A program made the translations under genes and the position numbers. Shown piece by piece: positions 30,461 to 33,367 of a stretch of DNA of 64,000 bases. The stretch's first letter is position 1. Each line of letters begins with the position of its first letter. The stretch lies in IMG/VR virus record IMGVR_UViG_2687453424_000001; one strand, 5' to 3'. The DNA is from a virus (Duplodnaviria; Heunggongvirae; Uroviricota; Caudoviricetes). The notes below the pieces were generated by a model, which worked only from the letters and a program-made list of their open reading frames with translations, did not search any database and had not been told where the DNA came from.

Positions 30461-33367
30461 ATGACTCCAAGTGAACTGAGCGACCTGCTTTGGGCGCAGG
30501 TTGACAGGGTGGCTCCGCACCTGTTGCCAAACGGCAAGAAAGAGGGGCATGAGTGGGTTGCCGGTAACGTCAACGGTGACAAGGGAAACAGCCTTAAGGT
30601 CAACATTAGCGGCAAGAAAAAATGGGCTGATTTCGCTGAGGGAGACGGCGGTGACATGCTTGATTTGTGGATGGCATGTCGTGGAATTAACCTGCATCAG
30701 GCTATGCAGGAAGCGAAAGCATTTCTCGGTATCAAGGATGACGATCACCATTTCGATGCCAAACGTGAGAAAAAATTCTCCAGACCTGACCGCAAGAAAA
30801 TCGCCCGCTACGTTACCAGAACAGAATCCCATCTTGAGTACCTGCAATCGCGTGGCATATCGCCAGAAATCGTAAAGCGCTACGAGGTTGTCAGCGGCAA
30901 GGTGTGGAATGGAGAGCGGGAACTGGATGCTCTGGTGCTTCCGTACAAACGCGATGGTGAGTTGTTGCAGGTCAAGCGAATCAGCACTGAGCGCCCGGAC
31001 GGGAAGAAAGTCATTATGGCAGAAGGTGATTGCGAACCTTGTCTGTTCGGATGGCAGGCTCTGGACGCTGGCGTGAGGGCGGTTGTACTTTGCGAAGGCG
31101 AAATTGATTGTATGAGCTATGCGCAATACGGCATCTCGGCGTTATCCGTGCCGTTTGGTGGCGGGAAAGGCGCTAAGCAGCAGTGGATTGAGTTTGAGTA
31201 TCACAACCTCGACAGGTTTGAGGAAATATTCATCTCGATGGACGTTGATGATGTTGGTCGTGAAGCCGCAAGGGAAATCGCAAGCCGACTCGGTGAACAT
31301 CGTTGCCGTCTTGTTACTCTGCCGTACAAAGACATCAACGAATGCCTGATGAACGGTGTTACCGAGGATGAAATCTGGCAGTACATCGGCACGGCATCCT
31401 ATTTCGATCCTGAAGAACTCTACAGTGCGCGAGAGTTTTACCAGGACACTATCAACGCTTTCTACGGCAAGAAGCAGTATCTGTTTAATCCACCGTGGGA
31501 ATCTCTGGCAGATAAATTCCAGTTCCGTGAGGCCGAGTTGACGCTGGTCAATGGTGTGAACGGTCACGGAAAGGCATGCCCACTGAATGAGCCTATTCTT
31601 TTAGCTGATGGGACATGGACTACTCACGGGGATGTAAAAATTGGCGATCAGGTGGCGTCAGTAGACGGCAATCCGTCAACTGTCACTGGGATATTCCCGC
31701 AGGGTGTTAGAGATGTTTACCGAGTCACATTTGAAGATGGTCGTTATGTTGATTGCGCAGGCGATCACCTATGGGAGGTCACTAGTCGTGGATTCACGAA
31801 AGGCGAGAAACGCCGCGTGATTGACACCTTCGAGCTGAAGCGGTTGAGTGAAACGAAGAGGCACAAAAATGGCGTTAGGATTCCTGAAATAACTGGTGAC
31901 TTTGGCGACCACTCAGAGCCATTAGCATGGGTTATCGGCTCCCTTCTCGGGGATGGTAGTCTTAGCAATGGGAGCGTGAAGTTTTCAAACGTCGAGCCAT
32001 ACATGATCGAGCGTATGAAGGCTGAACTGCCTGATTACAACTTCTCTGGAGATGGTAAGGACTGGCTGATATCAACGGCGCGTGGTCAGGCAAATCCACT
32101 CATGGAGACCCTGCGAGGTTATGGACTAATGGGGTGCACAGCAAAAAACAAATTCATCCCTCGTGTGTTTTTTTCCGCAAATAAATCAACGCGTATAGGC
32201 ATGCTGTGTGGTCTGCTTGAAACGGATGGGTATGTCGAGAAGGATGGAACGCTTGTTTTTTCCTCAGCAAGTGAAGAACTGCGCAATGGGGTTGTTCAAC
32301 TGGTTAACTCACTCGGCGGGTCATGCCGGACGCGAGTTAAAACTGGCGTGACATACACATACAAGGACGATAAGCGGCATGGGATGGATTCATACGAGGC
32401 AAGAATCAGACTGACAAGAGAAATCAGGGAGGCCATCCGTTCACCACGACTCAATGGCAGATTAACTGCGCATCGATTCGAGGGCTGTGGGGTATTCGTC
32501 AGGAATGTTGAAAAAATCGGCAATGCAGAATGCTTGTGTATTATGGTCGATCACCCTCGCCACCTGTATGTAACCAGGGGATATGTGGCGACGCATAACA
32601 CCGAGGTTGTCGGGCATATGGCACTTGAGGCAATGCGTCAGGGTGTGAAGACGTGCATCGCGTCACTTGAGCTGAAGCCTGGTATTCTCCTTAAGCGCCT
32701 TACCCGTCAGGCGACGTGCTGCAAGATGCCGCCAGTGCTGGAAATTGACTCTGCATTTAAATTTTATGACGAAAGACTTTGGGTGTTTGGCCTGACCGGA
32801 ACGGCGAAAGCCGACAGGCTGATCGAAATATTCGACTACGCTCGCCGCCGATACGGTATCCAGTTATTCATCATCGACAGCCTGATGAAATGTGGCATAG
32901 GCGACGATGACTATAACGGGCAGAAGGCGTTTGTTGACTCGATTTGCGACTTCAAAAACAAAACAAACTCCCACGTCATTCTCGTTACTCACTCGCGAAA
33001 AGGAGACAGCGAAGAAAAACCAACCGGGAAAATGGACGTAAAAGGCTCTGGAGCGATAACAGACCTGACAGACAACCTTTTCATCATCTGGCGTAACAAG
33101 GCTCGCGAGAGAGCGTTACAGAGAGTTCAGAGTGGTGAAAAGATGTCAGAGAAGGACGAACAGCTACTGGCATCTCCGGCATCTGTTTTGATGCTTGAAA
33201 AACAACGTAACGGCGAAGGTTGGGAAGGTGGTGTCCCGTTGTTCCTTGACGAGCAATCGCACCAGTTCCTGCAACTTGAATCAGGATCGCCATATAGCTA
33301 CATCGCCAATATGCCGAAATCGGAATATGACGAGGCGTGGCGACAGGAAAACGTGACGGAGTATTAA
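30461..33367 (+). CDS. Primase-helicase (Toprim primase domain plus RecA-fold helicase), interrupted by an intein
   Basis: 968 aa; Toprim region (VLCEGEIDCMSY…ISMDVDDVGREAA), P-loop NGVNGHGK(A) then intein, helicase motifs after intein (QLFIIDSLMK, ILVTHSRK, GSGAITDLTDNLFII). Confidence 0.8.
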   Translation: MTPSELSDLLWAQVDRVAPHLLPNGKKEGHEWVAGNVNGDKGNSLKVNISGKKKWADFAEGDGGDMLDLWMACRGINLHQAMQEAKAFLGIKDDDHHFDAKREKKFSRPDRKKIARYVTRTESHLEYLQSRGISPEIVKRYEVVSGKVWNGERELDALVLPYKRDGELLQVKRISTERPDGKKVIMAEGDCEPCLFGWQALDAGVRAVVLCEGEIDCMSYAQYGISALSVPFGGGKGAKQQWIEFEYHNLDRFEEIFISMDVDDVGREAAREIASRLGEHRCRLVTLPYKDINECLMNGVTEDEIWQYIGTASYFDPEELYSAREFYQDTINAFYGKKQYLFNPPWESLADKFQFREAELTLVNGVNGHGKACPLNEPILLADGTWTTHGDVKIGDQVASVDGNPSTVTGIFPQGVRDVYRVTFEDGRYVDCAGDHLWEVTSRGFTKGEKRRVIDTFELKRLSETKRHKNGVRIPEITGDFGDHSEPLAWVIGSLLGDGSLSNGSVKFSNVEPYMIERMKAELPDYNFSGDGKDWLISTARGQANPLMETLRGYGLMGCTAKNKFIPRVFFSANKSTRIGMLCGLLETDGYVEKDGTLVFSSASEELRNGVVQLVNSLGGSCRTRVKTGVTYTYKDDKRHGMDSYEARIRLTREIREAIRSPRLNGRLTAHRFEGCGVFVRNVEKIGNAECLCIMVDHPRHLYVTRGYVATHNTEVVGHMALEAMRQGVKTCIASLELKPGILLKRLTRQATCCKMPPVLEIDSAFKFYDERLWVFGLTGTAKADRLIEIFDYARRRYGIQLFIIDSLMKCGIGDDDYNGQKAFVDSICDFKNKTNSHVILVTHSRKGDSEEKPTGKMDVKGSGAITDLTDNLFIIWRNKARERALQRVQSGEKMSEKDEQLLASPASVLMLEKQRNGEGWEGGVPLFLDEQSHQFLQLESGSPYSYIANMPKSEYDEAWRQENVTEY
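31577..32599 (+). other. Intein with LAGLIDADG homing-endonuclease domain, inserted in the helicase P-loop (start may be 31574 if Ala is first residue)
   Basis: In-frame 341-codon insert: N-terminal C-PLNEP-ILLADGT (Hint block A), two LAGLIDADG motifs (SLLGDGSL, LCGLLETDGYV), C-terminal …VATHN followed by Thr (+1). Confidence 0.7.

Follow-up and report, generated by a model that had tools for sequence, protein, structure and literature searches.

The replication protein P of a Stx2a-converting phage is very probably interrupted by a class 3 intein of 342 residues, which contains a two-motif LAGLIDADG homing endonuclease and is placed between the Walker-A lysine and threonine (GVNGHGK/T, the slash marking the insertion point) of a Toprim primase / SF4 helicase. 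The window, by which we mean the whole stretch of 64,000 nucleotides that was analysed, is a Stx2a-converting lambdoid prophage, and its ORF at 30461..33367 is gene P of the phi24B-type Stx2a phages, the nucleotide identity to phi24B P being 100%. The original prediction had described this ORF as a 968-aa replication protein, a phage primase-helicase that is interrupted directly after its Walker-A lysine by a full-length intein with two LAGLIDADG motifs, and in these respects it holds. The features of the gene and of the intein are as follows.

30461..33367, + strand: precursor primase-helicase gene with the intein, 968 aa, 109.2 kDa (ORF confirmed)
30461..31573, + strand: N-extein, 371 aa, primase part and start of Walker A (Pfam Toprim_2, intein-less alleles)
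31085..31348, + strand: Toprim_2 domain in the N-extein, residues 209-296 (Pfam)
31553..31573, + strand: first part of Walker A, GVNGHGK, at the end of the N-extein
31574..32599, + strand: intein, 342 aa, 38.0 kDa, protein residues 372-713 (precisely missing in intein-less alleles)
31574..31576, + strand: Ala1, non-nucleophilic first residue (intein-less junction, relatives)
31577..31579, + strand: Cys2, idiosyncratic, the relatives having Gln or Leu
31760..31774, + strand: splicing block B, GDHLW (alignment to MchDnaB1)
31766..31768, + strand: His65 (B:10), aligned with His65 of the class 3 intein MchDnaB1
31772..31774, + strand: Trp67 (B:12), aligned with Trp67 of the class 3 intein MchDnaB1
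31826..32470, + strand: predicted homing-endonuclease domain, approximately intein residues 85-299 (Pfam, predicted model)
31931..31963, + strand: LAGLIDADG motif 1, VIGSLLGDGSL, intein residues 120-130, catalytic Asp127
32204..32236, + strand: LAGLIDADG motif 2, LCGLLETDGYV, intein residues 211-221, catalytic Asp218
32528..32551, + strand: splicing block F, ECLCIMVD
32537..32539, + strand: Cys322 (F:4), predicted class 3 nucleophile, aligned with Cys124 of MchDnaB1
32585..32602, + strand: splicing block G, VATHN, and Thr+1; includes Thr340 (G:5) and His341
32597..32599, + strand: Asn342, last intein residue
32600..32602, + strand: Thr+1, which would complete the P-loop GKT once spliced
32600..33367, + strand: C-extein, 255 aa and stop codon, rest of the SF4 (DnaB/gp4-like) helicase domain

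The boundaries of the intein are given by naturally occurring alleles that lack it. The genes of mEp043, Sf101 and Stx2_EH2086 encode 626 aa, are 98.4-98.7% identical to the window gene at the nucleotide level and read ...NGVNGHGK/TEVVGH at the junction, and alignment of these alleles and that of SEN22 shows that exactly 1026 nt are missing, the in-frame insertion being precisely absent from near-identical orthologues. The P-loop sequence at this point in the intein-less alleles of the mEp043/Sf101 type is the region GTGAACGGTCACGGAAAAACGGAGGTTGTCGGGCAT. As these alleles read GHGK/TEVV, residue 1 of the intein is assigned to Ala at 31574 and its end to THN, followed by Thr+1. The sequence NGVNGHGK-A-C (then PLNEP) is indeed present from 31550, as are SLLGDGSL, LCGLLETDGYV and the terminal VATHN at 32585..32599 with Thr next at 32600, and the choice between Ala and Cys as first residue, which had been left ambiguous, is settled by the intein-less homologues. 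The coordinates 31574..32599 proved exact, but the span, previously put at about 341 codons, comprises 342, the lower count applying to a start at Cys; likewise, the free intein of about 38 kDa agrees with the computed 38.0 kDa, whereas the spliced product has 626 aa (71.1 kDa) and not 627.

Between the Hint halves lies the predicted endonuclease domain, in which both acidic residues of the two LAGLIDADG motifs are present and which matches Pfam LAGLIDADG_3 (E=1.6e-8, 35.1 bits against a gathering cutoff of 22.5), while Hom_end_hint remains below its Pfam gathering score (26.3 vs 32.1). In the AlphaFold2 model of the intein (pLDDT 78.5, pTM 0.78, from an alignment of only 7 sequences) the domain adopts an alpha/beta fold like that of PI-SceI domain II and the flanking parts a predicted Hint fold. 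By Foldseek the full-length model matches PI-SceI (E 9e-18, TM 0.73-0.75) and also the TliVMA intein and PI-PfuI, and class 3 mini-inteins match its Hint part, with a TM of 0.76 on target for MchDnaB1. The LAGLIDADG region matches PI-SceI-type endonucleases by sequence as well. Thus PI-SceI (the VMA1 intein), PI-PfuI and TliVMA appear to share the two-domain architecture and fold of the window intein, and yet they belong to class 1, with Cys1 and an Asp in position F:4, and are only ~15% identical to it.

Among 296 E. coli genomes that have the gene, 79 carry the intein and 217 lack the segment, which is not what would be expected if homologues held it as an integral part, the outcome that the original prediction had named as its refutation. 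All 79 copies are at least 99% identical and reside mostly in O157/O111 Stx2a prophages. Three extein haplotypes were found to carry the intein, and two of them are also known without it: Stx2_16002 has an identical intein on an EH2086-like extein haplotype, and Klebsiella phage phiKp_30 has a 98% variant on a mEp043-like N-extein. In both of these independent intein-positive haplotypes the recombination breakpoints fall upstream of the insertion site, within ~0-100 nt of it, and the downstream extein is window-like for a few hundred nt, as would be expected for a co-conversion tract. The presence of one intein on different extein haplotypes is consistent with homing. Lambdoid phages recombine extensively, and such ordinary recombination could also account for the mosaic extein haplotypes, with no part played by endonuclease-driven homing.

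Hence there is some chance, which we consider to be well short of even, that splicing is kept while the endonuclease is inactive, the intein being a vertically inherited passenger whose spread over haplotypes reflects phage recombination, and the near-identity of the E. coli copies fits such clonal inheritance. Against this, both LAGLIDADG aspartates and the predicted domain fold are intact, the domain has not been deleted despite the existence of mini-intein relatives (P0006), the breakpoints in the two independent haplotypes lie close to the insertion site, and the codons at which the intein variants differ are mostly synonymous (17 synonymous to 7 non-synonymous). An intein that still homes is the reading that we prefer, and the natural intein-less alleles could serve directly as substrates if homing were to be assayed in E. 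coli phages, a tractable system.

The splicing domain carries blocks A, B with His B:10, F, and G with His-Asn, followed by a nucleophile at +1. Its best sequence matches among solved structures are the class 3 DnaB inteins MchDnaB1 (6rix) and Msm DnaBi1 (6bs8), with E=4.8e-10, and H65, W67, C124 and T143 of the solved class 3 inteins align with His65, Trp67, Cys322 and Thr340 of the window intein. The class 3 signature is complete (Ala1, His65, Trp67, Cys322, Thr340, His341, Asn342 and Thr+1): the intein starts with none of Cys, Ser and Thr, the WCT triplet is formed by Trp67, Cys322 and Thr340, and Thr occupies +1. By these residues the window intein is a class 3 intein with the WCT signature. 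A class 2, KlbA-like intein (Ala1 with no WCT, Cys+1 attacking the N-junction) is rejected, as WCT is present and the +1 residue is Thr.

The same residues are conserved in the relatives of the intein, a family that a word-index protein search barely touched (6 matches) and that became visible through an exhaustive search of representative proteins, which returned 16,992 at E<=1e-3, the best full-length relative scoring 1e-98. Like the Pfam LAGLIDADG_3 and solved-structure scores, these values greatly exceed what chance would give. In the 138 nearest full-length relatives that span both intein ends, Trp B:12, Cys F:4, His B:10 and the terminal His-Asn are invariant (138/138 each), Thr G:5 is found in 137 and Thr or Ser at +1 likewise in 137; residue 1 is non-nucleophilic in 134 and Ala in 108, and Gly-Lys precedes the intein at -2/-1 in about 130. 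Position 2 is Gln in 106 and Leu in 28 of these relatives and Cys in none. With Cys2 next to Ala1 in the window intein, a side reaction at Cys2 may occur.

That the intein instead begins at Cys 31577 and follows class 1 chemistry, in which an N-S acyl shift would lead to removal of 341 residues and a mature GHGKA-TEVV, is hardly tenable: although this Cys lies one residue past the Walker-A lysine, Cys1 is the commonest intein start (PMC2807308) and the residue is retained in phiKp_30 through a synonymous TGC to TGT change, the intein-less alleles have no Ala, so that excision from the Cys would add a residue to the P-loop (GKAT), the relatives have Ala at position 1 and Gln or Leu at position 2, and none of the three WCT residues, whose presence goes together with loss of the N-terminal nucleophile, is missing. 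The Cys-start reading is therefore rejected by the intein-less junction and the relatives, and the canonical class-1 chemistry that the original prediction had offered for Cys 31577 is wrong, since the intein starts with Ala, the Cys comes second, and Ala1, Trp67, Cys322, Thr340 and Thr+1 together form a class 3 signature.

The exteins make up a bifunctional phage primase-helicase, in which a P-loop helicase of the DnaB/gp4 type comes after the Toprim domain as in T7 gp4. Pfam Toprim_2 matches the N-extein with E 3e-12, and in-silico removal of the insert makes the helicase domain contiguous again. After such splicing DnaB_C is aligned over profile positions 16-253 of 255, albeit with 23.8 bits below the cutoff of 27, AAA_25 scores 28.0 and so exceeds its gathering cutoff of 27, and phrog_239, 'DNA primase/helicase', matches with 1.8e-171. 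A GP4d_helicase domain (CDD) has been reported in phi24B P (PMC3430580). The G+C content of the intein (0.494) is not distinct from that of the exteins (0.516 and 0.499).

We see next to no likelihood that the segment is a permanent domain or a dead intein that is never excised, the 968-aa protein working unspliced or being a pseudogene product. RefSeq does give the ORF in its entirety a single name, 'toprim domain-containing protein', and related 'Primase' inteins of Shigella prophages, named as inteins with no N-terminal nucleophile, exist as truncated, partial copies (PMC2807308; phrog_510), but viable phages, mEp043 and Sf101 among them, have near-identical orthologues that work with no such segment, a Walker A split at GK/T is incompatible with ATPase activity (as is generally known and argued in PMC6195587), the catalytic splicing residues are all intact, and the carriers phi24B and Min27 are infective isolates (records; PMC3430580). 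An integral domain is rejected by the intein-less orthologues.

Phage Min27 and the primase of a Shigella flexneri prophage have the same element, and InBase lists inteins under the names 'EP-Min27 Primase' and 'ShP-Sfv-5 Primase'. An intein in replication protein P of the Stx phage phi24B (vB_EcoP_24B) was reported by Smith et al. (2012, BMC Genomics 13:311; PMC3430580), and our literature search on the EP-Min27, Stx2 primase and 24B inteins found this report only. The authors described a protein of 968 aa in which TOPRIM_primase and GP4d_helicase domains are joined by an intein from residue 372 onwards, called the function undetermined and speculated in general terms on post-translational regulation (PMC3430580). 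They gave 702 as its end, whereas the intein-less alleles place the end at 713, and their account contains no class, Ala1/WCT signature, LAGLIDADG domain, intein-less alleles or functional data. Little is added here as discovery, since the intein in this exact protein was already in print in 2012 and the characterisation of class 3 inteins in the P-loops of phage helicases goes back to 2010. What we add are the boundaries 372-713 in place of 372-702, the predicted class 3 assignment with its Ala1 start, Cys322 as the probable nucleophile and Cys2 as a lineage oddity, and the intein-less alleles together with the occurrence of the intein on three haplotypes.

The class 3 mechanism has been worked out in DnaB inteins (PMC2807308, PMC7664689, PMC6195587), the prototype being that of Mycobacteriophage Bethlehem (PMC2807308), with structures available for Msm DnaBi1 (PDB 6bs8; PMC6195587) and MchDnaB1 (PDB 6rix/6riy; PMC7664689). 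The window intein shares with these three a non-nucleophilic residue 1, the Trp/Cys/Thr triplet, Thr+1 and insertion directly after GK in a phage-type helicase P-loop, and the numbering of the MP-Be DnaB intein (Cys320, Thr339, His340, Asn341; PMC2807308) is nearly equal to its own. It differs from them in its host, a fused Toprim primase-SF4 helicase where theirs are DnaB, in the Cys at position 2, and in retaining the endonuclease, the solved class 3 structures being mini-inteins. There is also a class 3 intein in a DnaB-type helicase of other Stx2a-converting phages (e.g. LC487996, BBL33594.1), which is 50% identical in amino acids over 342 residues and has the same GK/A...DNHLW...ECLCIMV...THN/T layout and the same LAGLIDADG domain in the same kind of phage; its host, however, is a non-orthologous helicase that has DnaB N- and C-terminal domains but lacks a primase, and Met occupies position 2 of the intein.

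We propose that the 109-kDa precursor would not bind ATP properly, as its P-loop is split, and that splicing takes the route established for class 3 inteins. Cys322, with His65 assisting and Trp67 and Thr340 holding it, would attack the Lys(-1)-Ala1 bond and form a block-F thioester branch, from which the N-extein would be transferred onto the side chain of Thr+1; cyclisation of Asn342 would then free the 38-kDa intein, and an O-N shift would restore a normal peptide bond. The product would be a primase-helicase of 626 aa (71 kDa) that has GVNGHGKT as its P-loop and whose ligated junction peptide would read ...LTLVNGVNGHGKTE.... In alleles that lack the intein, the P-loop codons would be where the endonuclease of the free intein is expected to cut, and repair of the cut allele would then copy the intein in. 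Both splicing and DNA cleavage are inferred, and a literature search for splicing or nuclease experiments on the window/phi24B P intein found none.

It is conceivable but improbable that the window intein is no neutral parasite but a switch that gates the replication of the Stx phage conditionally, by redox state. In the class 3 intein Msm DnaBi1 oxidation traps the precursor by a disulfide (PMC6195587). The redox partner there is Cys48, and since the window intein has Val at the aligned position this particular disulfide is ruled out. By analogy, the catalytic Cys322, which is flanked by Cys320 in block F, could face the lineage-specific Cys2 at the N-junction, and oxidation could lock the precursor in a disulfide. 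The uniqueness of Cys2 with respect to the 138 relatives and its retention through a synonymous change are neutral as to whether a disulfide forms. Oxidative stress induces Stx prophages, and a redox switch, if true, would tie helicase maturation, phage replication and Stx2 output to it. The gene that hosts the intein is essential for the replication of Stx2a-converting phages, which are of medical importance, and, as the element resides in such a gene, helicase activity, phage replication and toxin gene dosage would depend on protein splicing.

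The primase-helicase precursor, gene P of phi24B-type phages, is interrupted by an intein at 31574..32599, which separates an N-extein (30461..31573) from a C-extein (32600..33367). Against Pfam, the precursor matches Toprim_2 at residues 209-296 and LAGLIDADG_3 with a score over the gathering cutoff; Hom_end_hint falls short of its own cutoff, and of AAA_25 just the tail is recognised. The NCBIfam models matching the insert are all intein-containing (DnaB PRK07773, RecA PRK09519, RNA polymerase A'' and radical-SAM with inteins). The gene and its surroundings are as follows.

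Replication gene and neighbouring features
29865..29928: tandem repeat, 24-nt unit x 2.9, inside the O-like gene 29574..30350; encodes GGAGAA(R/L/P) protein repeats
30461..33367, + strand: primase-helicase ORF, 968 codons (ORF call)
38705..38956: three tRNA genes (CAT anticodon, Arg-TCG, Arg-TCT), just upstream of stx2A (start ~39047)

Alignment to intein-less homologues fixed the junction. The alleles of mEp043, Sf101, APC_JM3.2 and Stx2_EH2086, 98.4-98.7% identical to the window gene, align to it as two pieces and span 1881 nt (2907 - 1026). They read AAC GGT CAC GGA AAA directly followed by ACG GAG GTT (NGVNGHGK/TEVVGH), and only one placement of the intein ends restores GHGKTEVV. The original prediction had left the first residue ambiguous; as the empty alleles join GHGK to TEVV, Ala 31574 is intein residue 1 and Cys 31577 is residue 2. 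The strings it quoted (NGVNGHGK-A-C-PLNEP, SLLGDGSL, LCGLLETDGYV, and VATHN then Thr) all lie where it placed them. Deleting the insert in silico made the helicase domain continuous again: DnaB_C then covers 16-253 of its 255 profile positions, the AAA_25 score rises over the gathering cutoff and the match to phrog_239 ('DNA primase/helicase') has E = 1.8e-171. By calculation the precursor weighs 109.2 kDa, of which the intein accounts for 38.0 kDa, and splicing would leave a 626-aa protein of 71.1 kDa. The flanking codons differ synonymously between the window (Lys AAG, 31571..31573; Thr ACC, 32600..32602) and the empty alleles (AAA; ACG), a difference that could reflect either co-conversion or variation of the target site.

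Class 1 does not fit this intein, residue 1 being Ala; the standard N-S shift cannot start splicing in an Ala1 intein, and two ways around this are known, those of classes 2 and 3. Its sequence does not conform to the class 2 (KlbA-like) inteins, which have Cys at +1 and lack the WCT triplet. Class 3 inteins carry Trp B:12, Cys F:4, Thr G:5 and Thr or Ser at +1, with the helicase P-loop as their usual site (PMC2807308), and judged by sequence this intein has every class 3 hallmark.

Sequence motifs of the intein (intein numbering, + strand)
His65, Trp67: block B, GDH65LW67
120-130: LAGLIDADG motif 1, catalytic Asp127 kept
211-221: LAGLIDADG motif 2, catalytic Asp218 kept
Cys322: block F, EC-L-C322-IMVD
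340-342: block G, T340-H341-N342, then Thr+1

An exhaustive profile search gave 16,992 representative proteins at E <= 1e-3, and residues were counted over the 138 best relatives covering both intein ends. Trp B:12, Cys F:4 and the terminal His-Asn are present in 138/138, and Thr G:5 and Thr/Ser +1 each in 137/138; position 1 is Ala in 108 and a non-nucleophile in 134, and Gly-Lys immediately precedes the intein in about 130. Position 2 is Gln in 106, Leu in 28 and Cys in none, so Cys2 (31577..31579) is unique here. The closest solved structures by sequence are the class 3 inteins MchDnaB1 (6rix, 6riy) and Msm DnaBi1 (6bs8), and the catalytic set of the former, His65, Trp67, Cys124 and Thr143 (PMC7664689), aligns residue for residue with His65, Trp67, Cys322 and Thr340. 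We assign the intein to class 3 because of these structure matches, the signature residues of the relatives and the fact that their position 2 is never Cys. The same layout recurs in other P-loop hosts, namely DnaB (GK/AMAL...), PhoH (GTGK/AQPL...THN/T) and a DnaB mini-intein (VGK/AIPN...THN/T).

By analogy with the family, Cys322 would attack the Lys(-1)-Ala1 bond to form a block-F thioester branch, the N-extein would be moved to Thr+1, and Asn342 would cyclise, an O-N shift then completing GVNGHGKT. As the intein splits the Walker-A motif the helicase should be inactive before splicing, as likewise argued for P-loop inteins (PMC6195587). The Klebsiella phage phiKp_30 keeps Cys2 despite a synonymous TGC->TGT change. 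A redox trap in which Cys322 pairs with Cys2 or Cys320 is a possibility, but a purely speculative one; Val stands here at the position of Cys48, the redox partner of Msm DnaBi1.

Foldseek aligns the AlphaFold2 model of the intein (7-sequence alignment, mean pLDDT 78.5, pTM 0.78) along its entire length with PI-SceI (E 9e-18, TM 0.73-0.75), the TliVMA intein and PI-PfuI, and along the Hint part with class 3 mini-inteins. Asp is found at position 127 in 115/138 relatives and at position 218 in 137/138, and we saw no signs of nuclease decay in the LAGLIDADG motifs or predicted fold. By analogy, the P-loop codons of empty alleles would be where the free intein cuts.

Of 5,426 complete E. coli genomes, 296 have the gene, 79 with the intein (all at least 99% identical) and 217 with empty alleles. 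SNP patterns place the intein on three extein backgrounds, the first being the window type. In Stx2_16002 all 16 N-extein SNPs, to gene position 1074, are common to intein-less Stx2_EH2086, the intein is identical to ours and several downstream positions are window-like. In phiKp_30 the N-extein is mEp043-like, with the Lys codon AAA of empty alleles, and the C-extein is window-like from gene position 2140 to about 2700. Such patterns are what one would expect if a double-strand break at the homing site had led to asymmetric co-conversion; it is also possible that ordinary lambdoid recombination produced these mosaic haplotypes. The phiKp_30 and window inteins differ at 24 codons, and as 17 changes are synonymous and 7 non-synonymous, with no catalytic residue changed, the comparison indicates purifying selection.

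The window gene is 100% identical in nucleotide sequence to that of the Stx2a-converting Stx2a_F403, Stx2a_F451, vB_EcoP_24B (phi24B) and phiXuzhou21, and 99.7% to that of Min27. The Min27 record (EU311208) carries a 2-nt indel at gene positions ~2497-2509, either a frameshift or a sequencing error, that breaks the gene into two annotated parts, 'P' and 'ORF31 putative DNA primase', and is the reason why published work gives '87% identity'. In E. coli Xuzhou21 the order is that of a lambdoid early region (cI, cro, cII, O-like gene, primase-helicase gene, nin region, Q, three tRNAs, stx2A). RefSeq names the product 'toprim domain-containing protein', the intein being absent from the annotation; it calls the first tRNA tRNA-Ile, whereas ARAGORN calls it Met. 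The 24-nt repeat looks like an iteron array and is probably the phage replication origin, which would sit within the initiator gene as it does in lambda. Salmonella phage SEN22, a relative whose primase-helicase has no intein, carries between ninB and ninD an HNH homing endonuclease gene (3868..4449), a further mobile nuclease of this early region.

The intein is real, was correctly interpreted in the original prediction and was already known. Smith et al. 2012 placed it at residues 372 to 702 of phi24B P, with orthologues in Min27 and a Shigella flexneri prophage and its function stated as untested (PMC3430580); their start is our Ala1, whereas their end falls 11 residues short of that set by the empty alleles. 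Tori et al. 2010 reported truncated Shigella prophage 'Primase' inteins without an N-terminal nucleophile (PMC2807308). Our literature search found no experimental work on this intein. InBase presumably lists the Min27 and SfV primase inteins. We refine these reports by assigning the intein to a class, fixing its C-terminal end exactly and adding evidence from haplotypes.

Truncated 'DNA primase' genes that consist of the N-extein followed by residues 1-233 of the intein make up a phage protein family of their own, phrog_510 (667-position profile), and a 203-aa Shigella flexneri fragment (P0001, 99% identical) is of the same type, ending inside the intein; both match the partial inteins of Tori et al. 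2010 (PMC2807308). A free-standing 357-aa metagenomic protein (P0003), 34% identical to our intein, lacks His B:10 and Cys F:4, ends in His-Cys and not His-Asn, keeps the LAGLIDADG domain and could be a copy that has decayed or been domesticated. The 'DNA helicase' of Stx2a phage 981509 (LC487996, 1898..4291) has a class 3 intein in its P-loop, 50% identical to ours; this type (GMGK/AMAL...DNHLW...ECLCIMV...THN/T, with a LAGLIDADG domain) is found in about 49 Stx2a phage records. Its host is the DnaB-type helicase of other Stx2a-converting phages, non-orthologous to the window primase-helicase. As related inteins thus reside in both alternative helicase modules of Stx phages, our data suggest past transfer of the intein between different helicase P-loops.
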